Assembly: GCA_045543775.1 (NCBI GenBank)
Contig: JAZPXS010000345.1
Coordinates: 1-33,146 of the forward strand
Source: Clostridia bacterium
GTDB lineage: Bacteria; Bacillota; Clostridia; UMGS1810
Length of the DNA: 33,146 nucleotides
Direction of reading: 5' to 3'
Part shown: in pieces, positions 1,214-31,679 of the stretch
How the letters are laid out: every line of letters starts with the position of its first letter
Numbering within the stretch: position 1 is the first letter of the stretch
Notes under the pieces: model-generated
What the model saw: the letters and a program-made list of their open reading frames with translations, nothing else
Databases searched by the model: none
What the model was told of the DNA's origin: nothing
Made by a program: the position numbers and the translations under genes

Positions 1214-2842
1214 TTATTTTTTAAGCTTTTTCATTAGTTTTTTGTTATCTTCTCCAAAAAATCGGGACAATTCTTTGTAAATCTCATAAAGTCTCAAATA
1301 GCTTTGTACATTGGTCTCGTCGGGAATATATGTTATTGATTCCTTGTCAGCCATAGATTTTGCCGCATCATCAAACGAAGTGTAATAGCCGCTTGCACAG
1401 GCAGCAAGAATCGCACTTCCTTTTGCACCTGCCTGTGTGCTTACGGGAACTACTATCTTCTTGCCAAGGACATCTGCATAAATCTGCATAAGGAATGTAT
1501 TCTTTTGAGAAATACCTCCTGTTGCATATATCTCGTCAATCTTAACTCCGTTATTCTCATAGAGTTCAACAATCCTTTTTGTTCCGAATGCAGTTGACTC
1601 TATCATCGCCCGATACACTTCTTCCGGCTTGGTGCTCAGGGTGAGTCCGACTATTACTCCCGATAAATCATAATCTGCATAGGGAGTCCTGTTTCCGTTC
1701 CACCAATCCAGTGCTACAAGCCTGCTTTCTTCCACTTTTATTTTTTCTGTCTTTTCGGTAAGAAGCTCGAAAATATTTTTGGAAGATTTTTTTGCTTCCT
1801 CATAGTATTCTCCCGGAACACTGTTTTTCACAAACCAGTCAAAACTATCGCCTACGCAGGCTTGTCCTGCCTCATATGCAACATATCCGGGGATAACACC
1901 ATCCTCAACACTTCCGCAAATGCCCGGAATATTATACATATTTTTATCCATTACAATATGGCATGTGGAGGTTCCGATAATAAGCATAAGCTTTTTGTCA
2001 CTGACGATTCCTGCAGCCGGAAGTGCCGCATGTGCATCAATTATGGGAACGGCAACAACTGTGCCGGATTTCAAGCCGGTTAAAGCTGAGCCGTATTCAT
2101 TTATTTCTCCTGCTTTGACACCCGTAGGTTTAACTTTTTCGGAAATTTTAGTACCCACAATATTTTCAAATTGCGGCGATATCTTCTTTAAAAACTCACT
2201 GTTCGGATAGCCGCTTTTTTTATTCCACAGTCCTTTATATCCTGCCATACAACTGCTGTGGCTTTCCTCTCCGGTAATCATCCACACAAGCCAGTCGGCA
2301 GCTTCTATAAATCTTGATGTGTCCTCAAAGAGCTTGGGAGCCTTGTTCAAGGTTTCCAGAATTTTTGGCAAAAGCCATTCGGATGATACCTTTCCGCCGT
2401 ATGTATCCAGCCACTCTTCTCCGTTTTCGATTGCTTTTTCTGTAATGAAATCCGCCTCATACTGTGCACCGTGATGCTTCCATAGTTTTACATACGCATG
2501 AGGCTCATTTGCATATTCATCCTTGAAGCACATCGGTACACCGTTTTCGTCCACAGGAAGCATAGTGCAGGATGTAAAATCAATACCTATACCCAAAACA
2601 TCCTCGGCATCAACTCCCGATATTACATTTTTAACCACATACGAAAGGCAATTAAGATAATCCTGCGGATTCTGAAATGCTGAACTGCGGTCGACTTTTT
2701 TGTTCCAACAGGGTTCATCGCACATTACCTGATGGGCATATTCCATCTGGGCTTCGGCAACGGTATTGCCGTTTTCCATATCAACAAGTATTGCCCTTGC
2801 GGACAAGGTGCCAAAATCAACACCAACTGAATATTTACTCAT
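1214..2842 (-). CDS. araB: ribulokinase (FGGY carbohydrate kinase family)
   Basis: 542 aa. The N-terminal VGVDFGTLSARAILVD motif, FGGY-type length and C-terminal GGISQKN/GAKGSAILAA segments resemble Firmicutes AraB. Confidence 0.7.
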   Translation of the reverse strand: MSKYSVGVDFGTLSARAILVDMENGNTVAEAQMEYAHQVMCDEPCWNKKVDRSSAFQNPQDYLNCLSYVVKNVISGVDAEDVLGIGIDFTSCTMLPVDENGVPMCFKDEYANEPHAYVKLWKHHGAQYEADFITEKAIENGEEWLDTYGGKVSSEWLLPKILETLNKAPKLFEDTSRFIEAADWLVWMITGEESHSSCMAGYKGLWNKKSGYPNSEFLKKISPQFENIVGTKISEKVKPTGVKAGEINEYGSALTGLKSGTVVAVPIIDAHAALPAAGIVSDKKLMLIIGTSTCHIVMDKNMYNIPGICGSVEDGVIPGYVAYEAGQACVGDSFDWFVKNSVPGEYYEEAKKSSKNIFELLTEKTEKIKVEESRLVALDWWNGNRTPYADYDLSGVIVGLTLSTKPEEVYRAMIESTAFGTKRIVELYENNGVKIDEIYATGGISQKNTFLMQIYADVLGKKIVVPVSTQAGAKGSAILAACASGYYTSFDDAAKSMADKESITYIPDETNVQSYLRLYEIYKELSRFFGEDNKKLMKKLKK

Positions 2843-5690: not shown

Positions 5691-5711
5691 ATTAGATTCC
5701 ACCTCCTGACA

Positions 5712-11559: not shown

Positions 11560-12843
11560 TTATTCAAAGCAATTTATTGCTTCACATACAGGAATAAGTT
11601 TTGGTGAATCGGCAAAAACCAAAATAGTTAAATCACTAAGCTCTTTGCCCTCAGGGAGAGTATATGATGAAAGAATTAATTTGCCGTCAGCATCAATGAC
11701 ACCGTTTCTAAAGTCTAAATAAGACATCTCTCCGTCAGAGTAAATGACACTAAGAATTTTTACATCTGTTGTCGGATAGCCGTTTGTACCGTCAAATGTA
11801 AGTTCAATGGCAGGGGTATCACCAGAGGATATATTCAAGCCGTTCTCTGCAAGGGTGAGTCTGCTGGCTATTTCTGTAGTAAATGTAAATTCATAAGCCG
11901 GTACTTCCAAACCATCCATATCCTCAACGCCGGATAACGTAACGGTATATTCGGTATCCTTATCCAGCATATCTTCAAATATGACATTTACTGTTTCATA
12001 GCTTGTTGTAACCTGATACTTATCAGTGTCCACGGTGTTACCGTCTTGGTCTGTTACAGTAACAACCACATTATCCTCACTAACCTTCATAAAGGGTTCA
12101 TAACGGAAACTAAATTCAGGCATTCTGCTTACATTTTCTGTCTCAGGAGTATTTACCGGCTCCGTTGAGATTTCCTCGCCTTGGGAAATTCTTATTTCAT
12201 CAAATATGATTTGCTGTCCTGCAACAGAAGCCCATCCATTGCCGCGGCAGGAATACATATATAAATAGTTAGCGTTATTTGCTCTGTAACCGGTTACCGA
12301 TGTACCATACTTATCGGTAATTCTGATGTCTGCACGATTTGGTGAAAACTTAACCTGTATGTCGTACCATTCACCGGGTGTGCAGGTGAGATTACCGCTT
12401 TTGTTAGTGGGCATAAAGATATAATCACTGCCGCTTGTCATAATGTAGCACAGGGAATCATATCCGGAATTTATCAGAAAATCTCCGGTATTTCCATCAA
12501 CTTTCAGCTTGAATGAAACATATACAGGTGCATCCGCAGTGGGTGCAAATACTGCAGTATCATTCAGAAGTGCTATCTGGAATTTTGTGGCATCGTTTTC
12601 TGTGATTTTGAGTGCTTTTCCGCTATAACCGTCCTCTATAATTTCAAGAGAAGAACCTTCGGGATAGAACCAGCTTCCAAAGGCCTTTGCATATGTTGTA
12701 ACATCTGCGGCTGAAACGGTTCCGGTATTTAAGGTGTCAAAAGAGTCAAGCGAGCTTAGAACAGGAGTGTCTGCCGACACTACAACTGCACTTCCAAGCA
12801 GCATAACCGCAGCTATAAGAAAGAAAGCTATATATTTCTTCAT
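11560..12843 (-). CDS. secreted LamG/ConA-like plus Big_5-like protein (paralogue of 9574..11529)
   Basis: 427 aa. Signal peptide ending VVSA/DT. FAPTADAPVYVSFKLKV and FDEIRISQG match the neighbour. YTVTLSGVEDMDGLEV is Big_5-like. AAGGAGGA SD. Confidence 0.6.
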   Translation of the reverse strand: MKKYIAFFLIAAVMLLGSAVVVSADTPVLSSLDSFDTLNTGTVSAADVTTYAKAFGSWFYPEGSSLEIIEDGYSGKALKITENDATKFQIALLNDTAVFAPTADAPVYVSFKLKVDGNTGDFLINSGYDSLCYIMTSGSDYIFMPTNKSGNLTCTPGEWYDIQVKFSPNRADIRITDKYGTSVTGYRANNANYLYMYSCRGNGWASVAGQQIIFDEIRISQGEEISTEPVNTPETENVSRMPEFSFRYEPFMKVSEDNVVVTVTDQDGNTVDTDKYQVTTSYETVNVIFEDMLDKDTEYTVTLSGVEDMDGLEVPAYEFTFTTEIASRLTLAENGLNISSGDTPAIELTFDGTNGYPTTDVKILSVIYSDGEMSYLDFRNGVIDADGKLILSSYTLPEGKELSDLTILVFADSPKLIPVCEAINCFE

Positions 12844-12860
12844 TTATTATCTCCTCCTTT

Positions 12861-15482
12861 CTACTCCCAGATATAAACGGCTGCACTATAGAATGCGTAA
12901 GCACCCATATGGATGAAGACCGTTACCTTTTCGGCACTGTTTATATATGTGGGAATGTTCTGGAAATCTCCGCTATAAAGCGTTATTGTTCCGTCTATCA
13001 TATTGTACACGGGGATTTTTGCGGGGTATTTGTACGCAAACACAAACTTTTCATCTTCGGTTACATCACTGAGGTCAGTCTTTGCCACAGCTTCAAAGTG
13101 AGTTGCATTTGTGTTGTAGAGTGTACCGTATTCGTAGTGAAGTCCGCTGGCGGTTAGATCGTCTATATGCATTGTGGGTTCTTTTTCTACGGCAAATGCC
13201 CTCTCAAGCTTGACGATTTTTCCGCTTGCATTCTCTGCAAAACGTACGATATCTCCCTTTCTTATATCAGAAAGTGTCTTGTTTGTAGCTTCGGACACAT
13301 CGGTAAATATGAACTCGTCGCCATCAATCAAATCCTTTGTAATACTGCCTGCGTAACCGTGGAGGTAGAATCTTGTCACATCGTCACCGCTGTCGTTAAG
13401 AGTTTTTACTACCTTTTCTACCATATATGCACGATTCATAAAGCTGATATCGTCACTTACATCTGCATATACAAGTATGCAGGCTGTCTTACCTACCTCA
13501 CCGATATCGTAGCTTTCGTAGTTATAAAAAGTGGATGAAGCGAAAATCAATGGTGACTCTGCCTTAAAGGCGGATTCGTCTGCATCTGCATCGTCTGTTA
13601 CATAGAACACCTTGGTGTCGGAAGCAACAACGGTTCTGTGATCTTCAAATCCGTTGAAGTCGCCCCAGTAACGCATCGCGGTATCCTTTGCACTATAATC
13701 CAGAGAAAGCGAAGTATCTGGAACTTCCTTATCGCCGATATTGGCAGTATCTATGGCTATAATCACACCGCCGGAGAGCTTGTATCTTATGAGCTGACGG
13801 GAATTGAGGACTGCCGGAAGAGTGTATCCGCCATCTATAACCTCTCTGTCTCCGTCGAGGAAATATTTTTCCTTTACATCATAGACAAGAAGCTCGGAAT
13901 CATTATTTAATATCTTAACCTGCATCTTGCTGTCAAATGCATTGCTGTTTACTCCGGCAGCCATAAGATATCCGTACTGCATTTGCTCACCCGATTCTAC
14001 AAGTTCAAAATCGCAAATGGCTCCGAAAGCATCAATTGAAAATTTGTAGGTCGATGCCAATTCAAGAGGATTCTTGACATTCATATCGGATATTACATTC
14101 AAAAGACTGCCGGGAACAAATGTTCTTTCGTCTATTACACACTCCTCAGCGGACATATGCTCAAGCACGCCGGTAACTTTTCGATTGCTTACATATACTC
14201 TCACAAACTCTGCCTTGGAATAATCAAAGCTCAGCTTTCCTGCAGAAATTGTATAAGCATCACACGCAATACTTACTACGGAGTCTGCCTTTATGGCAGC
14301 CATACCGACCTTCATATTGTTTTCGTACAGAGCAAAGGCATTGTCATTTCCATCAAAGTCTATATGCTGTTTGGTGTATTTTGTGTTTATGGCATTACTC
14401 TGAATGCTTGCACTCTCTACTACTTCTGTAACGCATAATGACATATCAACTGTGTCATAGCCGCCGTTATTATCGGAATCGAATACCTCCATAGTACCCG
14501 AGGTGAATACACTGAAAAGCTCCTTGGTTAAATCTCCGGGTTTACCATTTACGATAATTGTTGCAGTGTGAGGAATGCTCACTCTTTTTCCGTCATCGTA
14601 CTTAAATTCCACCTGACTTCTGCCAACCTTAACGTCGTATATGTCGTCGGGATAAAGTGTGAGGGATTCTCCGCTTATGTCTGCAAGACTTACAACAGTT
14701 TTTACTCCACCGACACTGCGAAGATAGTACTTTACCAATCTTCCTGCAAGGGCATCATCAATATCACACTCAGCCTTGTAGATTTTACCGTCGAGATTTA
14801 TGTAGCCTTCCTCACAAAGAACGGCACCCACACTTCTTGAATCTGTGGAAAGCAGCTTAGCCTCTCCTGTTATGAGATTTTTGCTTTCAAGAACTGTCGG
14901 CTGTGCCATCAAAGCACCGTCGTAGGAAATCTCTGCCGGAAGAATTTCCAAAGCATTGAGTATCATAGTTGCCAGGTCGCTTTTTGTAGGATATCCGTCC
15001 GAGGGAGCGACTACGCCGTCAACAAGTCCTATTCTCTTTGCAGAATTCAAATAGGCAGAAACTGTTCCGCCGTTGGCAAGAGCAACTCTGTCGTAATCAA
15101 GAAGAGTTACAAGAGCTATAACTGCATCGTTGTATGTAACCTTCTCATTGGGATTAAAATTGCCATTGCCATCAAGAGCAAGATACTTCTTTTCTATTGT
15201 ATATGCTGCTGCCTGCTTGTCATCCTGCTTATCAACATCGTGTACAAGCTCAGTATCTGCAACTGCCGGAAAATACTCTGGATCGAGTTTGCAAAGCATT
15301 CTGGCAAATTCCATTCTTGTATAATTCACGTGAAAGTACGGAAATTTGACCGCAGTAGCTATGCCTAAATCCTCCAAAACCTCAGCAGGATTTGTTCCAT
15401 AGAATGCAAATGCCAGATTTGCAGGGATAAGCATAGTAAAAGCAATTATTAACGAAAGTACTTTTTTTAGTGTTTTATTCAT
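12861..15482 (-). CDS. large surface protein with divergent N-terminal SLH-like triplet and beta-rich repeats (S-layer-associated, function unknown)
   Basis: 873 aa. Signal peptide ...ANLAFA. Three degenerate SLH-like segments (YTRMEFARMLCKL; GNGNFNPNEKVTYNDAVIALVTLL; GYPTKSDLATMILNAL). The start codon overlaps the upstream stop (ATGA at 15479-15482). Confidence 0.6.
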   Translation of the reverse strand: MNKTLKKVLSLIIAFTMLIPANLAFAFYGTNPAEVLEDLGIATAVKFPYFHVNYTRMEFARMLCKLDPEYFPAVADTELVHDVDKQDDKQAAAYTIEKKYLALDGNGNFNPNEKVTYNDAVIALVTLLDYDRVALANGGTVSAYLNSAKRIGLVDGVVAPSDGYPTKSDLATMILNALEILPAEISYDGALMAQPTVLESKNLITGEAKLLSTDSRSVGAVLCEEGYINLDGKIYKAECDIDDALAGRLVKYYLRSVGGVKTVVSLADISGESLTLYPDDIYDVKVGRSQVEFKYDDGKRVSIPHTATIIVNGKPGDLTKELFSVFTSGTMEVFDSDNNGGYDTVDMSLCVTEVVESASIQSNAINTKYTKQHIDFDGNDNAFALYENNMKVGMAAIKADSVVSIACDAYTISAGKLSFDYSKAEFVRVYVSNRKVTGVLEHMSAEECVIDERTFVPGSLLNVISDMNVKNPLELASTYKFSIDAFGAICDFELVESGEQMQYGYLMAAGVNSNAFDSKMQVKILNNDSELLVYDVKEKYFLDGDREVIDGGYTLPAVLNSRQLIRYKLSGGVIIAIDTANIGDKEVPDTSLSLDYSAKDTAMRYWGDFNGFEDHRTVVASDTKVFYVTDDADADESAFKAESPLIFASSTFYNYESYDIGEVGKTACILVYADVSDDISFMNRAYMVEKVVKTLNDSGDDVTRFYLHGYAGSITKDLIDGDEFIFTDVSEATNKTLSDIRKGDIVRFAENASGKIVKLERAFAVEKEPTMHIDDLTASGLHYEYGTLYNTNATHFEAVAKTDLSDVTEDEKFVFAYKYPAKIPVYNMIDGTITLYSGDFQNIPTYINSAEKVTVFIHMGAYAFYSAAVYIWE

Positions 15483-17218
15483 TTTGCTCCTCCCTTCTTG
15501 TCAAGAAGCCTGCAAAGCACTGCACAGCTCTCTGCTCTGGATATGGAATTCATAGGTTTGAATGTTCCGTCGGTGTAACCGTTTATAATGCCGGAAGCGT
15601 TCATAACTGCTATAGAATCCAAAGCATAGGGTGCAATATCGCCTTTATCTGCAAAAGCTACCTCTGTGTCTGACTTTGATGCAAGTGCACGGCTTAATAT
15701 AACTGCCGCATCCTGTCTGGAAAGGGTGTCCCCTATACCAAAGGTGCCGTCACTCTTGCCGGATATGAGTCCTGCATTGACCGCAGCGGTAACATAGGGT
15801 GCATACCACGCATCTACAGTTACATCTGCAAAATCAGAAGTTTTTTTGCTTATATCAAGCTTAAGTGCAGAAACAACGAGTTTGATAAACTCTTCCTTTG
15901 TAATGGAGGCATCAGGACTGAATGTTTTTTCATCCTTGCCTGCTACTACACCGATGTTGTAGAGTCTGGACACATATTCGTATGCCCAGTGAGTGATTGC
16001 AACATCATTAAAGCTGAGGGGTTTAATCTGTTCCTTTTCCGACTCTTCGGTTACTTCAACAACGGGAGGTCTGTATGAGCCGCCTCCGCCGCTGCTTACA
16101 CGGTTTGAACTGCTGTCGTCCTCGTCTTCTTCCTCAAGACTATCCAGAGCATCGTTATATAGACTAAGGACATCATCATATTCCAAAACTCCATCCTTGT
16201 TTTCGATAATGTAGCTGCAGATGTCTGCCCTGTCATAGTCCGAAAGTCCGCCATCAAGATATGCATCCTTGTCAAGACCGAAGACCTCATAGTATTTCAA
16301 TATAAAATCTTCTGCATCGCCTTTGACAACAACATTATCTTTGAGAACTTCAAGACCGGTAAGAGCCGTAAATTCATTGGCAATACCCTTACCTCTTGTG
16401 ATTTTTGCACTCTTTACTGCAGTCTTTATTGCAGTAAGTATGCTCTCTTTGGTATCACTGCCAAGTAAGCTGAAATCGTCATCCTCGTCTATATCCACAC
16501 TCCAGTACTTGGTGTTGTACTTTGCAAGTGCAGATAGTGTATCGTCACTTTCTGCAAGCTCCTGAAGTGCAAGTGCCTCGTTAAAGGATGTACTGAAATT
16601 GAGTACCGCTGACATATTCTTGTTGGGTTTTCCCTCTTCAAAGGGTGCAAAGGTCTTTAATATTCCGTGAAAAGCTGTCTTTTCCGAGATATTTTCATAG
16701 CTCTCTTTGTCAACACCTATGTTGGAGAGCAAATCCAGATTGGAATCAGTGAGTATGAGTGAGTAGTCTGCATCTTCACTGTTAAAGCTCTTTACCAGAG
16801 ATTCCAACTCGTCAGCATTAATGTGCTTGAAGCTATCTATCTTTACAAGCTCATTTTCGCCCATATAACTCATATAGACAGCACATATGCCGCTTTTGAG
16901 TCCGTCTTTCAGGTTGATTTTGTAGCCTTCGCTTCCAAATGAGAGTGCATCGTCAAGAGTAGTTATTCCAACATACTCCAGAATGCCGTTATATGCTTCT
17001 GTGCTGTTTGCACCTTCAATTTCTGAAAGCTCCCGTTCAGAACCGTCAGCTGCCGGATTTACAATAATTATTGCAACCGGATTTTCTGCATTGGCATTTT
17101 CTACTGTTCCTTTGACAATTACCGATGTTCCATCGTATGAAATTTCGGGAGCCGCACTGACAACAAATGTCGAAAACAGCAAAAGAAAAGCCAAAGCTAA
17201 GGTTATAGTTTTTTTCAT
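15479..17218 (-). CDS. surface protein with C-terminal triple SLH domain, acidic/Gly-rich linker and unknown N-terminal domains
   Basis: 579 aa. Signal peptide ...VVSA/AP. Linker EEEDEDDSSSNRVSSGGGGSYRPP. Three clear SLH repeats (FNDVAITHWAYEYV..., FADVTVDAWYAPYV..., FADKGDIAPYALDS...). AAGGAG SD. Confidence 0.7.
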   Translation of the reverse strand: MKKTITLALAFLLLFSTFVVSAAPEISYDGTSVIVKGTVENANAENPVAIIIVNPAADGSERELSEIEGANSTEAYNGILEYVGITTLDDALSFGSEGYKINLKDGLKSGICAVYMSYMGENELVKIDSFKHINADELESLVKSFNSEDADYSLILTDSNLDLLSNIGVDKESYENISEKTAFHGILKTFAPFEEGKPNKNMSAVLNFSTSFNEALALQELAESDDTLSALAKYNTKYWSVDIDEDDDFSLLGSDTKESILTAIKTAVKSAKITRGKGIANEFTALTGLEVLKDNVVVKGDAEDFILKYYEVFGLDKDAYLDGGLSDYDRADICSYIIENKDGVLEYDDVLSLYNDALDSLEEEDEDDSSSNRVSSGGGGSYRPPVVEVTEESEKEQIKPLSFNDVAITHWAYEYVSRLYNIGVVAGKDEKTFSPDASITKEEFIKLVVSALKLDISKKTSDFADVTVDAWYAPYVTAAVNAGLISGKSDGTFGIGDTLSRQDAAVILSRALASKSDTEVAFADKGDIAPYALDSIAVMNASGIINGYTDGTFKPMNSISRAESCAVLCRLLDKKGGAK

Positions 17219-17238: not shown

Positions 17239-20235
17239 TTATTTTCTAACTAATGTGTATCGTGTTTGAGTATGATGTTTACCGTCTTCGGATATTACAG
17301 TAAATCTTATTTCATCTCTTCCTGCCAAGCCTATTGTTCCCTCCGTATCATTGGGACAACCGTTCACTATAATGCGTGCATCGGGGTGGATGTCTGCATT
17401 GTAGCAAAGATACTCTGCATCGGCAGGGATATGGATATAATTGACTCCATCCTTTTGTGACACGAAGAAGTTATCCTCTTCAAAACCAAAATGTATGTTT
17501 TTAAGCTCACAGTCATAGGATGGCTGGTCTATCTGGTCGACGATAAGTATTTCTACACCTAAACCGTCCACGCTGAGCTTTACACTTCCGTCGTCGCCAA
17601 TTGAATAGGTCTTTTGACTTTCGGCACCCAATACAGATTTTGCATCGCTTAAGCTAAAGTTCACATTCTGAGCACCTTGGGACATATTTACAAGGAAAAT
17701 ATATGTTTTTCCGTTATGCCGTTTTACAAGGTGGGCAAATCTGTCCGGGATAGCTGCACTAAGGTGTATGTCGGGAACATCCTCCACGGAAAGTATGACA
17801 TCCTTGTACTTAGCCAATTCCTCGCTCACATCGGTAACGTCCTTTAAGGCTTCCGCTTTATCTCTCATACCCTTGGTACCGTCGGGGTCATATAGAGTAT
17901 TATCCAGATGGAAGTGGGAGTACCAGATAACAGCCTGTGCACCGGCACATACGGACTGCCATGCCATATTGCGAAGCTCGGTAATGTTGGGGCCTCTTTT
18001 GCGGTTAGCATAGGTTCCGCCCATTGTGGGTCCTAAATCGGAAATCTGAACTACTGACCATACGGGGCGGTTCTTTATTCCCTCACTAAATCCCTTTACA
18101 TGCTCATAGACTTCCCAGATGGGATCGGTTACTCCGTCGTTACCTGTAATTGGATACAGGTCGGGGGCATACACATCGTGACTGCCCGAATAGCCAATTG
18201 CATTGGTTTTTCCGCCGCCTCCTGTACCATAGGTGAGATGATCCATATCTATTTCACTTAATATCTGATTTTGCCACGTAAGTCTTTCTGACCACTGAAG
18301 ATAAGGAGCTTCATTATTAATCTGATAGCCCATATGAGCCTCCAGATTTTTAAGGTCCAAATCCTCTACTATTCTTTCCAGCACGACTCTCTCACTGGCA
18401 ATGGTGGATATGTCGCTGTGCTGAAACTGTTTGCGGAAAGCATCCTTGTATACAGATTCGGTATTTAGCATAACGGATATTCCGCTTTGTGCAAATTTCT
18501 CATAGTTTTCATAATTTTCCCAATGGGAAGAAAAAGAATTTTCTATTATAAAATCTATGGGTTTATTTGCAAAATCCGTCAACACCGACATATCTTTGAA
18601 GCTTCTTGCATAAGCACCGATTCCGAAATACGGTTCCCCATCCTTAACCACGCGTCCGTAGTCATCGAAATAGTATTTGGGCTTGTAATCTTCCTCTCTT
18701 TTTCGGAGTATCCAGTGATTGACATCAAGCTCTGTATTATCATTAATGTTTATAAGTCTTATTGCCAGATCATAATCACCGATTGCAAGCTCTCCTGACG
18801 AAAAGCTGATATCCATTCTATCCGAAATATCCGATATCTCCGAATGTCTTATAACATTGGAAATCTTGCCGCCGGTTATAGGTGATATTTCTGCAATAAG
18901 CTTATAGTCCTCTTCATTCAAAAATGTGCCAAGTCCATTTATATAGGAAGTAACCCGTATATCTCCCCTGCCGTCCGGGTCTGTTATAAGACCTTTGTAT
19001 GCAGGTTTATCAAGAACTGTTGTAAGCGGATTATATATAACTTTAAATATTTTTATATTGTCAATCCATACATTTCCCTTTACAACAGAATTGCTATCGG
19101 CAGTATTGGCGTCCTTTATCTGGATTGCCATACGCACAAATTCCGGATTGCTTTCTGCACTTATGGCACCGGAAACATAGGTCTGCTTAGTCCAGTCGGT
19201 ATTTTTGGTAATATCGCCGCCGTAGATATACCCGCCTCCGATATTTGTATTTGATGCGTTGTACCACTCAATACCTATACGGACACTTGCGTTTTCCATA
19301 CCCTCTGTCTTGATATCCCAGCTGATACAGTACTCTGTTCCGGCTTCTACATCATCAAAAAATATATTTTCGGTAGAGGCACTGCCACCGGCTGAGTGCT
19401 TTATTGAACGGGATGAATCCTTACCCACGGTTGTGTCTACTACTGCCGGAACAGTGTCTACTCCGGTATGAGTAAGATCAAAGGAAATATTGTCATCCTC
19501 AAAATCTTCAAAAGCTACCTCAACGCTGGGATACTGCAAAACTGTCTTTTCCACAGGAATTATATCCTGTAAATGGTCATCATAGGCATTTACATCGGAT
19601 ATGAGAACTCTGTCTATAAACACACAGAATTCAAGCCTTGTAATATCGTCTGTAGGCTTAAAACAATTATTGCCATTAAGGTCGGCAACATTCATATTTA
19701 CAAGTGTTGTAACAGCATCCAGAGCATAGTCGGATATACTATCCGCATCGGCAATAGTATATCTTTCTGTTTCTTCCAGTGCTATTGATTTGTAATTTGC
19801 CATATTTGCAACAATTACTGCGGCATCCTGACGGGTTATATTGCTTCCTATTCCAAAGGAGCCGTCACCTGCACCCTGCATAAGACCTGCACTGCAGGCG
19901 GCATTTACATAGCTCTCATACCAGGAGCCTGCCTCAACATCGTTAAACGAGCTGCCGGCACCGCTTAATGGTGCCCCGGCAGCCTTGACAATAATCTTGG
20001 CTGCCTCTTCACGCGTGAGAGTGTCGTTGGGGGCAAATTTACTGCTCGTTTTCCCTTCCACAATACCCTGCTCATAAAGACTCTTTACACTATAGTATCC
20101 ATTGGAAAAAGTCCAGGCACGAGGCATATCGGTAAAAGGTAATTGTGCCGCTGCAAAAGCCGTTGGGATAACCGAAGTAAATATTGCAAAAGCAACAATC
20201 AGGGTTATTATTTTTTTTAGATGTTTTCTATTCAT
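17239..20235 (-). CDS. SLH-anchored multidomain putative glycoside hydrolase (SLH x3, CBM4/9-like, beta-sandwich, TIM-barrel-like with NNE motif, beta domain, cadherin-like C-terminus)
   Basis: 998 aa. Signal peptide ...TAFA/AA. SLH repeats (LTREEAAKIIV, ITRQDAAVIV, ITRLEFCVFI). CBM_4_9-like segment ending NVWIDNIKIF. GEPYFGIGAY and QINNEAP (Glu codon 18310-18312) resemble clan GH-A strands. C-terminal Cadg-like RFTVISEDGKHHTQTRYTLV. Confidence 0.65.
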   Translation of the reverse strand: MNRKHLKKIITLIVAFAIFTSVIPTAFAAAQLPFTDMPRAWTFSNGYYSVKSLYEQGIVEGKTSSKFAPNDTLTREEAAKIIVKAAGAPLSGAGSSFNDVEAGSWYESYVNAACSAGLMQGAGDGSFGIGSNITRQDAAVIVANMANYKSIALEETERYTIADADSISDYALDAVTTLVNMNVADLNGNNCFKPTDDITRLEFCVFIDRVLISDVNAYDDHLQDIIPVEKTVLQYPSVEVAFEDFEDDNISFDLTHTGVDTVPAVVDTTVGKDSSRSIKHSAGGSASTENIFFDDVEAGTEYCISWDIKTEGMENASVRIGIEWYNASNTNIGGGYIYGGDITKNTDWTKQTYVSGAISAESNPEFVRMAIQIKDANTADSNSVVKGNVWIDNIKIFKVIYNPLTTVLDKPAYKGLITDPDGRGDIRVTSYINGLGTFLNEEDYKLIAEISPITGGKISNVIRHSEISDISDRMDISFSSGELAIGDYDLAIRLININDNTELDVNHWILRKREEDYKPKYYFDDYGRVVKDGEPYFGIGAYARSFKDMSVLTDFANKPIDFIIENSFSSHWENYENYEKFAQSGISVMLNTESVYKDAFRKQFQHSDISTIASERVVLERIVEDLDLKNLEAHMGYQINNEAPYLQWSERLTWQNQILSEIDMDHLTYGTGGGGKTNAIGYSGSHDVYAPDLYPITGNDGVTDPIWEVYEHVKGFSEGIKNRPVWSVVQISDLGPTMGGTYANRKRGPNITELRNMAWQSVCAGAQAVIWYSHFHLDNTLYDPDGTKGMRDKAEALKDVTDVSEELAKYKDVILSVEDVPDIHLSAAIPDRFAHLVKRHNGKTYIFLVNMSQGAQNVNFSLSDAKSVLGAESQKTYSIGDDGSVKLSVDGLGVEILIVDQIDQPSYDCELKNIHFGFEEDNFFVSQKDGVNYIHIPADAEYLCYNADIHPDARIIVNGCPNDTEGTIGLAGRDEIRFTVISEDGKHHTQTRYTLVRK

Positions 20236-23196
20236 TTATTCTACCGGCTTTTCTCTTATTACAATATTATAGGTTGTGTTGCTCTCATGTGCACCGTCCT
20301 CGGAGACAACGGTAACTACGAATTTGTCAAGACCTTCTATGGAAATCTTTCCGCTATGAGATACCTCACTGCCATTTATTAATAGCTTAGCATCCTTGTG
20401 AGTTTTAGCATCGTAGTAGATTTCTGTAGCACATGATGGCAGGAAAACTGTACGTTCATTATCGCCTATAGATACAAAGTAGCTCTTTTCACCGTTTGTA
20501 ATATTAAGGTTATCAAGAGTGCAATCGCAGGAGAGCTGTTCGCCCTGTTCGATTATAAGCACTTCTACACCGAGAGCATCCAGACTAATGTCTACATAGC
20601 CCTCTTCGTCAACCTTATATTCCTTGTTGGCGTATGCACCAAAAACGGATTTTGCATCAGAGAGCTTTATGCTTACAGACTGCGACTGCTTTTTATCCAT
20701 ATTTACAAGGAACACATATGTCTTTCCGTCATATCTGCGGACAAGATGCACAAGCTCCTCGGGAATTCCTGCTTTTGGATACACATCGGGAGCATCCTCC
20801 ACGGACAAAATCGCATCCTTGAACTTGAGTACTTCCTCGGTTACACCAAAGTATTCGGGCATTGTTTCCGACTTGGGACGGGAGATATTGGGATATGCCT
20901 TTTCGTCCAGATGGAAGTGTGCATACCATATAATACCCTGTGTTCCGCCGCAAACGGACTGCCACGCCATATTTCTGAGTTCCGTTTCGTTAGGTCCTCT
21001 TTTTCTGTGAGCATAAGCTCCGCCCATGGTAGGTCCAAGGTCGGAAATCTGAAGTGCGAACCACATAGGACGGTTAAAGGAGTAATCATAAAATCCCTTT
21101 GCCTGGTCGTAAACACTTCTTATGTCATCTGTATCGAAGCCTTCAATAGGATAGCGGTCTGGAGCATATATATCCTGACATCTTGCATAGTCAATTGCAG
21201 CCTGCTTACCACCGGCACCAACGCCGTAGGTAAGATGGTTAAAATCAACAGCATCAAATATTTTCTGCTGCCAAGCAAGTCTTTCCGCCCATTCGTTTGC
21301 AGGGCTTTCGTTGTTGGTCTGATAACCCAGATGAGCAGGATGATCTATAAGTCCCAGATCCTCAATGGTTCTCTCCACAATTGCTCTCTCCGAGGCAATT
21401 GTAGTAACATCAACGTGCTGATATGCAGGTCTGAAAGCATCCTTGAACATTGACTCTGTGCTTATCATTGATGTCATTCCATACTCTGCAAGCTTATCCA
21501 TAACCTCTTTACTTGTCCAGTAACGGCTAAAGGAGTTCTCTATAACAAAATCAATGGGAGAATCCTTAAAGTCCTCAACTGCATCGGGATGGGTGTTTCT
21601 TGCATAGACACCAATCGCAAACCAGGGTTCACCGTTTCTCAGCAGTCTGCCGTATTCGTCAAAGCTATAGGTTGATTTGAAGTCGGGTTCTCTTTTTCTT
21701 ATAACATAGCCGTTATAACCAATTTGTCTTCCCGTCTCAATATCCATAAGCTTTGTATACAGGATATAGTCACCTACGGATAAATCCTTTGACGAGAATG
21801 TAACATCCATTTCCTTTGTAGGATTGGTGATTTTGGACTCGGTTATAACATTGCCGTCCATATCGGTAAGAGCAGTTGTAAGCTCGCATTTTGCCGGATC
21901 GTAGGAAGCACCGAGACCTTCTATATATGTAGTAAGGTGAATATCGCTTTCGCCATTGGGGTCAGTGATGAGGCCCTTGTAGGCAGGCTTGTTGAGATAT
22001 GACTTAACAGGTTCAAAAACGATTCTGTACAGGTCAAGATTATCTATATAAACCTTACCGTCGGTCTTTCCTCTTATGGAGATTACTATACGAAGATACG
22101 CAGGAGGCTTATCCGGTGAGGGGGATGTGGTTGAACCCTGATAGGTCTTCCAATCTGTATCGCCATAGGTATCTGCTGTCTTTATGTAGGAACCGCCCAA
22201 AGCAACACCTGATGTTGTTACCCACTCAAGATTTACACGGGCATAGCAATCGCCAAGCCCCTCGGTCTTCATATCCCAGCTCATAATATAGTTGGTGCTG
22301 GGAGCATAATCATACAGATATAGCTCAAATGATGAGTAATCATCGCCGTCGCCCTCGAGCACCAGAGCACCGCTTCCGTCTACGCCGGCATCCTTAACAA
22401 GGTACTCAGAGGCAGGCTTTCCGCCGTGTCTTGCCTCATAGTCGCCAAGTGTCTTGATTTTGCCTTCAAAATCCTCAAAAGCAACAGACTCATTGTCATA
22501 TTCGGATATATCCTTATCCACGGGAATCCAATCCTGAATATGGTCGTCATATGCATTTACATCGGATATAAGAAGTCTGTCAAGCCATACGCAAAAATCA
22601 AGTCTTGTTATATCTTCTTTGGGTTCAAACTTGCTATTTACAAGGTCAATTACATTGAACTTAACAAGCTTTTCTATAGCTTCCTTGGCATAAGCAGATG
22701 CATCTGCAATGTCAGCTACAGTATGTTCTGTAATCAGCTCTATTCCGATATTCAGGTAATCTGCCATTCTGACAAGCAGCACTGTTACATCCTGACGGGT
22801 AATATTCTGACCTACGCCAAACTGATTGTTCCCGATACCTTTCATAAGTCCGGACTCATTTACTGTTTCTACATTCTCTTCATACCAGCTTCCGGAAACT
22901 ACATCTGTAAATGTATCTCTGTTTGCTGATACCGGAAGCTCAGCAGCCAGAGAGATAATCTTGGCTGCTTCCTCACGGGTAAGAGGGTCATTGGGAGCAA
23001 ATAATGTATCGGTTTTTCCTTCTATTATGCCTTTTTCCCACAGAGCTTTAACATTCATATAGCCGGAGCTGTTTGTACGCACAATATCTGTAAATGGGAA
23101 CTCCGCCTTGTATGTTTCGTCTGCAAAAGCAGGCATAACACCAAAGGAAGAAAGAAGCATTGCAAAAACCAGCAATAATAATGTAAAACGCTTCAT
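20236..23196 (-). CDS. SLH-anchored multidomain putative glycoside hydrolase, tandem paralogue of 17239..20235
   Basis: ORF track 20236..23226. The ATG at 23196 (MKRFTLLLLVFAMLL..AFA/DE signal peptide) follows AAGGAGG. Collinear with the neighbour (NKPAYKGLITDP, QTNNESP with Glu codon 21307-21309, LQISDLGPTMGG, RKRGPNETELRNMAWQSVC, FLVNM). Its TAA stop directly abuts the next ATG. Confidence 0.65.
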   Translation of the reverse strand: MKRFTLLLLVFAMLLSSFGVMPAFADETYKAEFPFTDIVRTNSSGYMNVKALWEKGIIEGKTDTLFAPNDPLTREEAAKIISLAAELPVSANRDTFTDVVSGSWYEENVETVNESGLMKGIGNNQFGVGQNITRQDVTVLLVRMADYLNIGIELITEHTVADIADASAYAKEAIEKLVKFNVIDLVNSKFEPKEDITRLDFCVWLDRLLISDVNAYDDHIQDWIPVDKDISEYDNESVAFEDFEGKIKTLGDYEARHGGKPASEYLVKDAGVDGSGALVLEGDGDDYSSFELYLYDYAPSTNYIMSWDMKTEGLGDCYARVNLEWVTTSGVALGGSYIKTADTYGDTDWKTYQGSTTSPSPDKPPAYLRIVISIRGKTDGKVYIDNLDLYRIVFEPVKSYLNKPAYKGLITDPNGESDIHLTTYIEGLGASYDPAKCELTTALTDMDGNVITESKITNPTKEMDVTFSSKDLSVGDYILYTKLMDIETGRQIGYNGYVIRKREPDFKSTYSFDEYGRLLRNGEPWFAIGVYARNTHPDAVEDFKDSPIDFVIENSFSRYWTSKEVMDKLAEYGMTSMISTESMFKDAFRPAYQHVDVTTIASERAIVERTIEDLGLIDHPAHLGYQTNNESPANEWAERLAWQQKIFDAVDFNHLTYGVGAGGKQAAIDYARCQDIYAPDRYPIEGFDTDDIRSVYDQAKGFYDYSFNRPMWFALQISDLGPTMGGAYAHRKRGPNETELRNMAWQSVCGGTQGIIWYAHFHLDEKAYPNISRPKSETMPEYFGVTEEVLKFKDAILSVEDAPDVYPKAGIPEELVHLVRRYDGKTYVFLVNMDKKQSQSVSIKLSDAKSVFGAYANKEYKVDEEGYVDISLDALGVEVLIIEQGEQLSCDCTLDNLNITNGEKSYFVSIGDNERTVFLPSCATEIYYDAKTHKDAKLLINGSEVSHSGKISIEGLDKFVVTVVSEDGAHESNTTYNIVIREKPVE

Positions 23197-23238
23197 AAAT
23201 ACCTCCTTGCTTAACTTTTCTATCATATAATGTGAATT

Positions 23239-26748: not shown

Positions 26749-27654
26749 CTACTGTTTCATATACTCCTCTACTTCCCGTTTGGACGGAATAGAATCCGCC
26801 GCTCCGGGACGTGAAACAGTAATTGCCGAAGCATTTGTTGCAAATATAGCTGCCTCCGCTATGCTCATCCCCTCACCCAGACAAACAAGAAAGGCTCCTA
26901 TAAAAGTATCTCCTGCAGCAGTTGTATCTACCGCCTTTACCTTGCGTGCCGGCGTGTGTTTTATATTTTCTCCGTCGTTATACACGCTTCCGTCTTTGCC
27001 AAGGGTGATAACAACCTGTGACAAGCCCTTGCCAAGAAGCACTTCCACTGCCTTTCCTGCACTGCAAAGGTCTACATCACATCCTGCAAGATATGCCGCT
27101 TCGTGTTCATTGAGAACGATAATATCTATGTAGCTATACATATCCTCGGGAATATCATATATGGGTGCGGGATTGAGCACCACCTTTTTGCCCAGGGATT
27201 TAACATACTTCATAGCTTCGAAAACGACATTCAAGGGGATTTCGAACTGAAAAACAACATAGTCCGATTTTTTTATTATATCTGCTTTGGATTTTATGTA
27301 CTCAAGAGTTACTTCCCTGTTTGCACCGTCGTCCAGAATAATGAAATTATCTCCGCCGACTACTGTTATCACCGCAACTCCGGTGTTGGTATCAGCCCTG
27401 TCTATGCCAATGGTATTGACTCCGTTTTTTTGGAGACTCTCTATACACATATCGCCATAGGCATCACTGCCTGCCAGGCCTATCATGGAAACCGCTTTTC
27501 CAAAATGTGCTGCGGCTATTGCCTGATTGGCACCCTTGCCTCCGAGACTGACACGGTATCCCGTACCCTTTACGGTCTCACCGATTTTCGGAACAGAGTC
27601 TACCGCTATGGAAATATCAGTATTGATGCTTCCTATTACAGCTATTGCTGACAT
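26749..27654 (-). CDS. rbsK: ribokinase (PfkB family)
   Basis: ORF track 26749..27663 (GTG). ATG at 27654 follows AAGAGG at 8 nt. Signatures LGGKGANQAIAAA and DTTAAGDTFIGAF are ribokinase-type. Confidence 0.8.
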   Translation of the reverse strand: MSAIAVIGSINTDISIAVDSVPKIGETVKGTGYRVSLGGKGANQAIAAAHFGKAVSMIGLAGSDAYGDMCIESLQKNGVNTIGIDRADTNTGVAVITVVGGDNFIILDDGANREVTLEYIKSKADIIKKSDYVVFQFEIPLNVVFEAMKYVKSLGKKVVLNPAPIYDIPEDMYSYIDIIVLNEHEAAYLAGCDVDLCSAGKAVEVLLGKGLSQVVITLGKDGSVYNDGENIKHTPARKVKAVDTTAAGDTFIGAFLVCLGEGMSIAEAAIFATNASAITVSRPGAADSIPSKREVEEYMKQ

Positions 27655-27655
27655 A

Positions 27656-28600
27656 TCACTCACCTCTTATGATATTATCAATATAGTATCTGCACAGCTC
27701 CCACATCTGTTTTGTGGAATCCTTCATATAATCGGTGAGCTCTGCACTGTCTCTGTTTCGTGCATAGTTTACGGTTTCTATCCCCTCAAGACACATACTG
27801 TATTTTGCAGTTAATGGATACGGCATTCCTATTTCGGTATAGCCCACAGTTCCTATAAGGTTTTGAACTATCTGTGCTTTTTCGGGATTCTCTCTGAAAT
27901 TATTGCAAAGCCACACATAAAGCTCAGGGTGGAAGTTACACATAATTCCGCAGTAACCGCTTCCTCCCGTCTGCAAAGACGAAAGAAGTGTCTGACAGTT
28001 TGCATTGAGAAGTCTGAAATGACTGCCTCTTATAATTTCGTTTCGTTCTGCAATAACTGCCGCATCACAGCAGGTGTCTTTCATATAATAGAATCTTCCG
28101 GTGTCAAGACACCACTTTAGTATCCTTGGTGTGACGAGTCTCTTGTATGGGGACGGACATTCGTAAAGTCCCAATTTAATATCCTTTGGAAGCTCTGAGA
28201 GAAGTCTCTTTGCATTGGCAATCCACACATCATCGCCCTCATTATTGATATCAAGGCGGTTTGTGATGAGTATGAGAGCATCAGTTCCGCTCTCTGCCAC
28301 CATATTGAGTTCCTTAATCTGGTCATCAATACTGTCGGAAACATGCCCGGAGGAAACAACAGTAAACGTTTTGCCGCTTTTCTGTTCTATCTCTTTTGCC
28401 TTGTTCCACACTACCGTGTTAAGCTTTATTCTCTCCTCAAGCGAGAGAAAGAATATCTCACTGGACTGGCAAATGGCAAAAACCCCGTTGCAGCCTTTAT
28501 CAAAATACCACTGCACATATTTTTCTGCAGTTTCATAATCTATGGTACCATCCTTTTTGTAGGGCGTAATCATAGTAGGAAATATGTCAAATTTGCACAT
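27656..28600 (-). CDS. DHDPS/N-acetylneuraminate-lyase family class I aldolase, atypical motifs
   Basis: 314 aa. CQSSEIFFLS sits in the place of the GTTGE/GSTGE motif, LYECPSPY in the place of the YN.P motif, and YYMKDTC carries the candidate Schiff-base Lys. The stop TGA lies 1 nt before the rbsK ATG. Confidence 0.65.
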   Translation of the reverse strand: MCKFDIFPTMITPYKKDGTIDYETAEKYVQWYFDKGCNGVFAICQSSEIFFLSLEERIKLNTVVWNKAKEIEQKSGKTFTVVSSGHVSDSIDDQIKELNMVAESGTDALILITNRLDINNEGDDVWIANAKRLLSELPKDIKLGLYECPSPYKRLVTPRILKWCLDTGRFYYMKDTCCDAAVIAERNEIIRGSHFRLLNANCQTLLSSLQTGGSGYCGIMCNFHPELYVWLCNNFRENPEKAQIVQNLIGTVGYTEIGMPYPLTAKYSMCLEGIETVNYARNRDSAELTDYMKDSTKQMWELCRYYIDNIIRGE

Positions 28601-30344: not shown

Positions 30345-31679
30345 TTATGCATTTATTATATACAAAGCTTTAAAACATCCTTTTATGTTTATCATTAAGG
30401 CTACTGATTCAAAAATCCAGGAAAACACCCACGCCCAATAAACACCGACCATTCCGTAGGGGGCCAGCACAAATGTGGCAATAATCCTTGACACAGAGCC
30501 AATGGCGGTAAATGCAACCAGATGCCCCATAGCCTTTATTCCCCTGAAAAAAGAATGAAACAGATTGTTTATTACATTAAAAACTATAAAAGGCAGGAAG
30601 AACTTTGCAAAGGTAACACAATAGTCAAGTGCCTGTCCCTCAAAACCGGAGGGAAAAAATACTCTGCAGAACTTTTCTGCAAATCCGACACTCACAATAA
30701 GGAACGGAGCAAGAAAAATAAGTGCCTGAATCAGTCCTACTCTTATTCCCTTTTTTATCTCACCGGTTTTTCCTGCGCCAACACACTGAGCTGTGTAATT
30801 AGTGAGAGTTTTGGATGAATTCTGATACACGCCTGCATTAATGTTGTATATCCTCATGGCAATGCTGTAAGCTGCTGTAGCACTGCTGCCTATGGAATTT
30901 ACTATGGGCGCCACAAGGATTGATGTCACATACATAACAGACTGCTGAACCATCACGGGAAGCGAAAAGCCAAAGGTCTTTTTTACACATCCAAAGGATA
31001 GTTTCACCCTATATTTATGTACTCCCAGCTCCCTGAAACATTTCCGGAGTTTGAAATAGTAGCATACGCATACTGCAAGTGCCGCAACAACCGAGGCTAT
31101 ACCAATACCAAGAACTCCAAGGTCGAATACGGTAACGCTGAGAATGTTTCCTGATATATTAATAATGGTAGACAAAACCGACATTCTGAGAGAATATCCG
31201 CTTATTCCAAGAGCGTGCATAACACTGATTCCGTAGTGGCTGAGCATAAAAAATCCAAAACCGCCTATGTACACCAAAAAGTATGTAAGTGCATCTTTGC
31301 GGATTGCATCATCCACCCTGAGCAAATCGAATATCAGATTTCTGAAAATTATTGAAATTATACTCACTGCAAGGGTAGCACATATAATAACCATTGCATT
31401 ATTGTATATATTTTCCTTGAGAGCACGGTAGTCCTTTGATCCGAAAAGGGTTGCGGTAAGCACAGATGCCCCCGTACCATAGCCCCAGAAAGCTGACGAA
31501 AAAAATGTTATGAGAGCCGATGTTGCTCCTATTGCTCCAAGCCCTGTTTCACCAAGATACTTCCCTGCTATTATCCCGTCAACAACATCGTACAGTTGTG
31601 ACAAAAGTCCCGACAAAACTATGGGTATTGCAAAAACCATAAAATTCTTGTAGATGTTTCCTTCTGTAAGATTTTTCAT
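30345..31679 (-). CDS. MATE family multidrug/metabolite efflux transporter
   Basis: 444 aa with about 12 predicted TM segments. The N-terminus GNIYKNFMVFAIPIVLSGLLSQLYDVVDGIIAGKYLGETGLGAIG is typical of MATE proteins. Confidence 0.85.
   Translation of the reverse strand: MKNLTEGNIYKNFMVFAIPIVLSGLLSQLYDVVDGIIAGKYLGETGLGAIGATSALITFFSSAFWGYGTGASVLTATLFGSKDYRALKENIYNNAMVIICATLAVSIISIIFRNLIFDLLRVDDAIRKDALTYFLVYIGGFGFFMLSHYGISVMHALGISGYSLRMSVLSTIINISGNILSVTVFDLGVLGIGIASVVAALAVCVCYYFKLRKCFRELGVHKYRVKLSFGCVKKTFGFSLPVMVQQSVMYVTSILVAPIVNSIGSSATAAYSIAMRIYNINAGVYQNSSKTLTNYTAQCVGAGKTGEIKKGIRVGLIQALIFLAPFLIVSVGFAEKFCRVFFPSGFEGQALDYCVTFAKFFLPFIVFNVINNLFHSFFRGIKAMGHLVAFTAIGSVSRIIATFVLAPYGMVGVYWAWVFSWIFESVALMINIKGCFKALYIINA

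Follow-up and report, generated by a model that had tools for sequence, protein, structure and literature searches.

A predicted clan GH-A-type barrel without a beta7 glutamate in two tandem SLH proteins of a Clostridia bacterium

Of all groups of glycosidases, clan GH-A is the largest and the best understood, and its retaining mechanism with two glutamates is treated as defining the clan. The acid/base lies after strand beta4 of the barrel and the nucleophile after beta7, and the Asn immediately before the acid/base binds the substrate (PMC7157763). We have analysed two adjacent genes, here called A and B, in a stretch of 33,146 nucleotides from a Clostridia bacterium (assembly GCA_045543775.1, contig JAZPXS010000345.1), the whole of which is referred to as the window. 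Each gene encodes a protein of ~1000 amino acids with S-layer homology (SLH) repeats and a central barrel. An earlier note on this DNA, made from the sequence alone, had pointed out the resemblance of this barrel to clan GH-A together with the lack of an obvious nucleophile glutamate. The resemblance is upheld below; the loss of the nucleophile is not peculiar to this gene pair but is the rule in a family of ~3,300 protein clusters. As read from the aligned sequences this absence is real and family-wide; the function and substrate suggested for A and B are predictions. A widespread family derived from clan GH-A without the nucleophile Glu would represent either a novel form of catalysis on this old scaffold or a large reservoir of enzymes mis-predicted as ‘inactive’, and the family-wide absence of this Glu makes an unusual mechanistic question directly testable.

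The nearest relatives among the glycoside hydrolase (GH) families are GH42, GH158 and GH148. In the GH42 enzyme BiBga42A, O2 of the galactose in subsite -1 is contacted by Asn159 and Asp285, and its alpha-face O1 by Asp285 and Tyr287. In the E160A/E318A mutant Asp285 binds a water that takes the place of the nucleophile's oxygen, the Y287F mutation lowers kcat by 80-170 fold and Trp326, eight residues past the nucleophile, lies at the -1/+1 boundary (PMC10688820). In BuGH158, mutation of N136, E137 or E220 abolishes activity (PMC7157763). The barrel of the GH148 beta-glucanase EngU is of the GH-A type and GH42-like; its acid/base motif is INNE, a CBM4 module is inserted into it after beta4, and the nucleophile is Glu581 in the motif VTEYN (PMC5725463). 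The exo-beta-D-glucosaminidase GlmA (GH35, with a GH42-like layout) is a GH-A enzyme with Asp-Glu in place of Asn-Glu, by which the 2-amino group of glucosamine is recognised; its D178N mutant is inactive and N-acetylglucosamine (GlcNAc) would clash (PMC6566704).

Barrel core and catalytic positions

Residues ~395-905 of A and B gave no Pfam match, and searches of NCBIfam and of PDB sequences matched the SLH part alone. The core chosen for modelling comprised residues 395-905 of A, so that core number plus 394 gives the residue number in A. Single-sequence input to AlphaFold gave a pLDDT of 31; the model built on an alignment of 137 sequences has a mean pLDDT of 95.7 and a pTM of 0.94. It consists of a beta-sandwich, eight alternating beta/alpha units and a second beta-sandwich. 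The barrel strands are, in core numbering, beta1 144-149, beta2 168-171, beta3 193-197, beta4 240-247, beta5 273-278, beta6 294-298, beta7 331-336 and beta8 372-378, and beta4 is followed directly by alpha4 (251-268) so that the barrel is contiguous at that point. The core is thus predicted to be a (beta/alpha)8 barrel, as the earlier note had supposed. Its assignment of motifs to strands is reproduced by the model and DSSP, with the GEPxF..G block at beta1 (the strand being FGIGAY within GEPxFxIG), NNE at the end of beta4 and the Q of hhhhQISD at the end of beta7.

The resemblance to clan GH-A is supported by profile homology. Comparison of the family profile with PDB sequences gave matches to GH158 (9oro, 3e-15), to GH42 (9ta3, 2e-11; 3tts, 7e-10) and to many GH2 glucuronidases and galactosidases (~1e-7 to 1e-5). 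On this sequence evidence the barrel is a diverged clan GH-A barrel. The alignment to 9oro covers beta1 to beta6, ending at chain residue 198, and places ‘HPAVLMWALGNE’ on the family sequence ‘HPALLaWylnDE’. A Foldseek search of the PDB with the core model gave loose multi-domain matches to GH66, GH2 and GH13 proteins with TMq at or below 0.47 and ~10% identity, and given that the matches are all of this low-scoring, multi-domain kind there appears to be no solved close relative. No match was found by hhalign between the family profile and a single GH42-like protein (L010). Neither A nor B hit the GH42 domain PF02449 at E<=1 or the GH42M trimerisation domain PF08532, and in the model the barrel runs straight into the beta-sandwich. 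Pfam hits to GH20 (Glyco_hydro_20), DUF4091 and DUF4838 were also absent from both. Membership of GH123 (DUF4091), of GH163/GH185 (DUF4838) and of GH148 was ruled out by domain content and motifs, and by the features tested A and B are not members of GH42, GH158, GH148, GH20, GH123, GH163 or GH185. They have the GH-A barrel, the homology and the Asn-Glu after beta4, but they do not have the GH-A Glu at beta7.

The second half of the barrel, judged by its motifs, is likest GH42 (3tts, 9ta3, BiBga42A). Besides the barrel and the [N]-E after beta4, the likeness extends to D-x-Y-P at beta6, to an N/D-aromatic pair on the beta7 loop, to the ‘R..(W/S)xQ..A.GA.G..(F/Y)’ block of alpha7/beta8 and to a beta-sandwich behind the barrel. 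Unlike GH42, which reads MEQ at beta7, A and B have no Glu there, and they lack the GH42M domain and the EKFH sugar-binding motif, carrying instead N-terminal CBM-like and beta-sandwich domains (CBM, carbohydrate-binding module). Among solved structures the closest in sequence is that of GH158 (3e-15, as above), a family which shares the HPAxLxW..(N/D)E block; its members are cell-surface endo-beta-1,3-glucanases in which the barrel is followed by an Ig-like domain, which we count as a likeness. However, GH158 has the canonical N136/E137 pair and the nucleophile E220, and of the catalytic E137 and E220 an equivalent of E137 alone is aligned, the alignment ending before beta7; GH158 also has Asn at the position of D692. 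GH148 shares the barrel type, the acid/base motif and the presence of a CBM4 module, but in A and B the CBM-like domain is N-terminal, beta4 and alpha4 are contiguous and the nucleophile is absent. GlmA, the sole GH-A precedent found for the Asp-Glu seen in the wider family (PMC6566704), keeps its beta7 nucleophile E347, whereas A and B have reverted to Asn-Glu.

Conservation was counted over the 137 aligned relatives. The Glu of NNE (E642 in A, core 248), which lies directly after beta4 and which the earlier note had equated with the GH-A acid/base, is present in 137/137 and is preceded by Asn in both A and B. D687 (core 293) is likewise found in 137/137 and D663 (core 269) in 136/137. At the end of beta6 stand D692 (core 298, 134/137) and Y694 (core 300, 136/137), which in alignments by hidden Markov model (HMM) correspond to Asp285 and Tyr287 of BiBga42A. 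D692 is the better-conserved candidate for a second carboxylate and was overlooked in the earlier note. Pro355 and Gly371 (core numbering) are each present in 136/137.

The end of beta7 reads V-V-Q in A. The codons of VQISD run from 18051 to 18037, those of Q (18048-18046) and D (18039-18037) falling within the interval given previously. Core 335 is Pro, Leu, Val or Ile and core 336 (Q730) is Gln in 134/137. Glu or Asp at the end of beta7 is absent family-wide among these relatives; P0104 is the sole one with Glu at position 336, in the context ‘RPVWIVPEIMEY’. Thus of the earlier proposal about QISD, the Gln at the end of beta7 and the lack of a carboxylate there stand, but the Asp is not a family-invariant residue (37/137) and is fixed in the SLH clade alone. 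The exact replacement of Glu by Gln is also less certain. In one HMM alignment Gln336 falls on the Gln of the GH42 ‘M-E-Q’, that is, after the nucleophile, whose position is then core 335, and in another the register differs, so that the equation of this Gln with the lost Glu may be one residue out. Under either register the aligned sequences indicate that the family as a whole lacks the canonical nucleophile. A hidden nucleophile might be sought in E753, where alpha7 starts, but this is unlikely given its conservation in 126/137 (Q, H, D or A in the exceptions) and its location on a helix.

The SLH clade, to which A and B belong, differs from the rest of the family on the active-site face. 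The residue before the catalytic Glu (core 247, residue 641 of A) is Asp in 120/137 and Asn in 15/137, with Asp in 119/123 of the non-SLH relatives and Asn in 13/14 of the SLH-clade proteins. At core 339, the Asp of QISD and residue 733 of A, the family has Asn (49), Asp (37), Trp (11) or Ser (10), and also His and Ala, and in the SLH clade Asp is fixed. This position aligns with the residue before Trp326 of BiBga42A. All 15 sequences with Asn at 247 carry Asp339, and in two relatives, P0016 and P0021, both positions are Asp. Residue 244, on the same strand as 247, changes too. The changes are correlated, the active-site face reading Tyr244...Asp247-Glu248 with a variable 339 in the wider family and Gln/Gly/Leu244...Asn247-Glu248 with an invariant Asp339 in the SLH clade, which otherwise keeps nearly every family-conserved residue.

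The extent of the family was established by scanning 1.84 billion cluster representatives (clusters at 50% identity) exhaustively with a profile, which gave 3,310 proteins at E<=1e-3, 1,258 at <=1e-10 and 152 at <=1e-30. The family therefore appears to comprise about 3,300 clusters at 50% identity, from many lineages. Word-indexed searches had found 3 and then ~16 SLH-bearing relatives, all from metagenomes or metagenome-assembled genomes (MAGs) named ‘Clostridia bacterium’, and a third such search with a broad alignment gave no further homologues. The best-scoring 150 relatives listed are mostly of ~650-800 aa and without SLH repeats, some having the sorting tails of the type IX secretion system (T9SS), and a 3,748-aa relative (P0120) has four matched stretches. 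As far as source names were seen, all are ‘hypothetical protein’. Among 65 relatives sampled, sub-threshold Pfam matches were obtained to Glyco_hydro_42 (18/65, best 6e-6), DUF4434 (12/65) and Glyco_hydro_2_C (6/65), and CBM_4_9 matched in 24/65. No NCBIfam model covers any of the 65, and none of the Pfam, NCBIfam or PDB sequence families covers the barrel core. A literature search on DUF4434 and on GH-A enzymes without a nucleophile found nothing relevant. Recognition of the family would provide an assignment for thousands of ‘hypothetical’ proteins in gut and environmental metagenomes, and herbivore-gut Clostridia with SLH-anchored pairs would gain a candidate surface glycan system.

Possible modes of catalysis

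Given that the acid/base Glu is invariant across the ~3,300 clusters, catalysis is favoured, and from their sequences A and B probably cleave carbohydrates by a non-standard route. The reading we prefer, although only tentatively and at rather less than an even chance, is that they are active SLH-anchored surface glycanases in which Glu642 is the acid, Asp692 is the second carboxylate, serving as base or as a short nucleophile, and Asp733 compensates for Asn641. The proteins would be secreted and held on the cell wall by the three SLH repeats, where they would cleave glycans. Glu642 would protonate the leaving group and an Asp would functionally replace the missing Glu nucleophile, the best candidate being Asp692 on beta6, the equivalent of GH42 Asp285. 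Asp692 would act either as a general base on a water molecule in the vacated nucleophile site, giving single displacement and inversion, or as a short nucleophile. To our knowledge inversion would be unprecedented in clan GH-A. The water or the intermediate would be held in place by Gln730 and Tyr694. Asp733 would have arisen in the SLH clade together with the Asp-to-Asn change at 641 and probably assumes the role that Asp641 has elsewhere in the family. A and B probably differ in substrate or act jointly, and would supply oligosaccharides to the adjacent ABC importer.

Several points weigh against this scheme. The placement of D692 rests on the HMM alignment to GH42 and on the published GH42 structure, and its conservation is no proof of a new role because GH42 has the same Asp and uses another residue as nucleophile. 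A beta6 Asp may also be too distant from C1 to act, and the register of Q730 against the GH42 nucleophile differs between the two HMM alignments. All characterised GH-A families are retaining and have the beta7 Glu (PMC7157763), and the activity, substrate and stereochemistry of the present family are as yet predicted ones. A bolder form of the scheme, which we regard as quite improbable taken as a whole, would be that this branch of clan GH-A (~3,300 clusters) without the beta7 Glu cleaves by means of Glu (beta4), Asp (beta6) and water in the former nucleophile site as the first inverting family in a retaining clan. The hop of a catalytic or recognition carboxylate from 641 (Asp-Glu, with substrates of the 2-amino-sugar type) to 733 (Asn-Glu plus the loop Asp) in the SLH clade would then mark a switch of substrate or mechanism, and the A-type and B-type proteins would be a fixed pair with a conserved surface cassette containing an SLH protein.

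The lack of any enzyme carboxylate at beta7 would also be expected if catalysis were substrate-assisted, an unlikely but serious alternative. The enzyme would then provide the acid/base Glu642 only and a group on the substrate, for example a 2-acetamido group, would attack C1 as in GH18, GH20, GH84, GH85 and GH123. Orientation of this group would fall to the residue preceding the Glu, which is Asp in most family members and Asn in A and B, as in GH85. The Asp-Glu after beta4 in the family consensus (120/137) is a hallmark of GH20/GH123-type enzymes (PMC11087588, PMC10570127), and genes for GH20, DUF4838 (GH163/GH185-type) and GH109-like proteins are found beside relatives. However, A and B themselves have Asn-Glu, the canonical GH-A pair, which binds the 2-OH (PMC7157763), and the Asp-Glu of GlmA recognises a free 2-amino group, with no assistance, and GlcNAc would clash (PMC6566704). 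Nor does the operon contain NagA/NagB-type genes; it has a ribokinase, a ribulokinase and a GH28-like gene, and, as noted above, GH20, DUF4091 and DUF4838 are not hit in A or B. The GH20, GH123, GH84 and GH85 hexosaminidases are mechanistic analogues only, sharing the (beta/alpha)8 fold, the lack of an enzyme nucleophile and the adjacent Asp (or Asn)-Glu after beta4. Their clan is a different one, no relationship to them was found by sequence or in Pfam, and A and B have Asn, not Asp.

The earlier note had raised the Asp of QISD as a possible nucleophile; this residue, Asp733, lies three positions beyond beta7. As a relocated nucleophile for retaining double displacement within the SLH clade it appears quite unlikely. 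GH-A nucleophiles do occupy the loop immediately past beta7 (PMC7157763), D733 is invariant in the SLH clade and present in 15/15 of the Asn641 sequences, P0016 and P0021 with Asp at both sites resemble intermediates, and the residue aligns just before the conserved GH42 Trp at the -1/+1 boundary. Across the family, however, the position is variable (Asn in 49, Asp in 37, also Trp, Ser, His and Ala) and for this reason it is not the general nucleophile of the family. The correlation between 641 and 733 comes essentially from one clade and therefore represents one evolutionary event.

Loss of the nucleophile is a classic route to lectin-like relatives of glycosidases. A and B could on this ground be non-catalytic scaffolds, pseudo-glycosidases binding a surface glycan and, for example, capturing substrate for the transporter or the cassette proteins; the additional binding-type domains (CBM-like and cadherin-like) and the adjacent SLH proteins would fit such a role. 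We consider this very doubtful, since the acid/base Glu is kept in 137/137 and an active-site face including D692, Y694, Q730, R747, P749 and E753 is conserved over ~3,300 clusters, and conservation of this kind across many lineages is not expected of a binding-only protein. Least probable of all is a beta4/beta6 pair as in the GH27, GH31, GH36 and GH66 alpha-glycosidases (nucleophile on beta4, acid/base on beta6), with Glu642, or Asp641 in the wider family, as nucleophile and Asp692 as acid/base on alpha-linked glycans: the ends of beta4 and beta6 are exactly where conserved carboxylates are found and the top Foldseek matches include GH66 dextranases (5axh, 7e-16), GH13 enzymes and a GH27-like protein, but the TM-scores are low (0.3-0.47), probably reflecting a shared three-domain layout, and the sequence homology is clearly to clan GH-A, in which the beta4 Glu is the acid/base.

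The gene pair, its domains and its neighbours

The earlier note had described A and B as collinear SLH paralogues resulting from an old, DNA-diverged tandem duplication, and this description holds. The open reading frames (ORFs) are found at the coordinates reported, and the BLASTP alignment, collinear between residues ~22 and ~996, has 452/983 identities (46%) and a score of 880 bits. The shared blocks that had been quoted are all present in both proteins, namely LTREEAAKII, KPAYKGLITDP, GEP(Y/W)F(G/A)IG(A/V)YAR, Q(I/T)NNE(A/S)P, (V/L)QISDLGPTMGG, RKRGPN.TELRNMAWQSVC and FLVNM. The most conserved stretch, aa 720-779, spans beta7 to beta8. The DNA is 57% identical overall and 41% at third codon positions, and no conversion tract between A and B was found, the best 60-codon window having 73% identity. 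The junction reads gaa TAA ATG aat, the stop of B (20238-20236) abutting the start of A (20235-20233) as had been noted.

In a tree of SLH-clade homologues the A-type and B-type copies form separate clades, and the two types occur on one contig in at least three other assemblies (P0009 and P0014, P0010 and P0015, P0012 and P0017). The duplication must therefore predate those species, and from these sequence comparisons A and B are an old duplication of which both copies have been retained. Another Clostridia bacterium MAG carries three SLH-clade paralogues on contig JAZQBI010000044.1 (L002 and L003), one a 996-aa gene and the others a tandem pair of 983 and 980 aa. Each of these two groups has an SLH / ~900-aa / ~440-aa cassette behind it, so that the whole module appears to have been duplicated on that contig.

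Table 1. Coordinates in the window of genes A and B, their domains and motifs, and selected neighbours.
Feature	Position	Strand	Basis
Gene A, 998 aa: signal peptide, 3 SLH, CBM4/9-like, beta-sandwich, (beta/alpha)8 barrel, beta-sandwich, cadherin-like	17239..20235	-	ORF call
Gene B, 996 aa, paralogue with the architecture of A	20236..23226	-	ORF call; 46% identity to A over 983 aa
B/A junction, B stop TAA then A ATG	20233..20238	-	Sequence read
A: three SLH repeats, aa ~31-212, predicted cell-wall anchor	19600..20145	-	Pfam SLH; alignment to B. anthracis Sap SLH domain 3pyw/9g93
B: three SLH repeats, aa ~40-220	22567..23109	-	Pfam SLH; collinear with A
A: CBM4/9-like beta-jelly-roll, aa ~243-394	19054..19509	-	Pfam CBM_4_9 E=0.0099 (weak)
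A: beta-sandwich before barrel, aa 404-512	18700..19026	-	AlphaFold/DSSP strands, core 10-118
A: predicted (beta/alpha)8 barrel, aa 538-809	17809..18624	-	AlphaFold pLDDT 95.7, pTM 0.94; profile matches GH158, GH42, GH2
B: predicted (beta/alpha)8 barrel, aa ~537-801	20824..21618	-	Homology to A: BLASTP register and family-invariant residues
A: N640-N641-E642, end of beta4, E642 predicted general acid/base	18310..18318	-	Glu 137/137; aligns with GNE of GH158, NNE of GH42
B: N638-N639-E640, same motif	21307..21315	-	A/B alignment
A: D692-L-Y694-P, end of beta6, candidate second catalytic carboxylate and partner Y694	18151..18162	-	Aligns with WDxYP of GH42
B: D690-R-Y692-P, same motif	21148..21159	-	A/B comparison
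A: Q730-I-S-D733, Q730 last beta7 residue, D733 on beta7 loop	18037..18048	-	DSSP and sequence
B: Q726-I-S-D729, same motif	21040..21051	-	A/B comparison
A: beta-sandwich behind barrel, aa 833-901, with VKRHNGKTYIFLVN block	17533..17739	-	AlphaFold strands, core 439-507
A: cadherin-like beta-sandwich, aa ~934-995	17251..17436	-	Pfam PF12733 E=0.015 in A
Three-gene cassette directly past the barrel genes: 579 aa with C-terminal SLH, 873 aa without known domain, 427 aa Big_5	11560..17218	-	
Ribokinase	26749..27663	-	TIGR02152, 324.9 bits (NCBIfam equivalog cutoff 299.65)
L-ribulokinase	1214..2842	-	677 bits (NCBIfam equivalog cutoff 428)

By their sequences A and B are SLH-anchored cell-surface proteins, a signal peptide being visible in each ahead of three tandem SLH repeats. 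Pfam SLH was matched in three stretches of A (3.9e-27) and of B (2.5e-26), and in the PDB sequence search these regions aligned to the SLH domains of Sap and SbsB. At the domain before the first beta-sandwich the family profile matched CBM-type PDB chains (8zdo, 9e-16; 4d0q, 7e-12; 1gui, 4e-9). For the sandwich behind the barrel, the profile alignment with the C-terminal part of GH42 chains is weak and not significant (domain E = 60 and 3.4e+03). The C-terminal PF12733 (Cadherin-like) match is stronger in B, at E=1.7e-4, than in A, and is also precomputed for the fragment P0001.

A and B lie within a long string of minus-strand genes separated by short gaps, with a divergent AraC-type regulator. 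In order, the string comprises genes for a DHDPS-family protein, ribokinase, two ABC permeases, a 525-aa solute-binding protein, B and A; these are followed by the 579-aa SLH protein, an 873-aa protein, a 427-aa Big_5 protein, a 651-aa protein, an esterase and a 205-aa protein, and then by a GH28-like protein, an octopine-dehydrogenase-like protein, a 501-aa protein, an amidohydrolase and ribulokinase. The gap from A to the SLH gene is 20 nucleotides (nt) and that from the solute-binding protein gene to B is 12 nt, and the first 4 nt of the 873-aa gene (15479-15482) are shared with the end of the SLH-protein gene upstream. The short gaps and the overlap are consistent with translational coupling in one long operon. 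The ribokinase, ribulokinase, GH28-like, esterase, octopine-dehydrogenase-like and amidohydrolase genes hint at a substrate containing pentose and uronic acid.

No significant family hits were obtained for four proteins of the operon, those of 873 aa (12861-15482, minus strand), 651 aa (9574-11529, minus strand), 205 aa (8104-8721, minus strand) and 501 aa (4197-5702, minus strand). The 501-aa protein gave a weak ceramidase-like Pfam match only, and the 873-aa and 651-aa proteins had no PDB sequence hit. The 651-aa protein was considered as a diverged member of the barrel family and rejected, being unrelated to it. The trio of SLH, ~880-aa and Big_5 proteins recurs beside family members in other Clostridia contigs (L002, L003, L011/L012 and L013), the 873-aa protein being 27% identical (E 2e-69) to its 914-aa counterpart at L011, and the trio may represent a conserved surface complex.

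The gene neighbourhoods of eight relatives were examined and are glycan-related but mixed in content. Beside distant relatives were found genes for GH28, GH20, GH2, GH42-like, sulfatase, AXE1-like esterase, heparinase-II/III-like, GFO/IDH/MocA and lyase-like proteins. The genomic context of A and B is clearly glycan-related as well. Towards the right end of the window are a MATE efflux gene (30345-31679, minus strand) and a PNPase-like ORF of 326 aa (32138-33118, minus strand) with RNase PH, KH and S1 domains, shorter than a full PNPase, both of which appear unrelated to the glycan operon.

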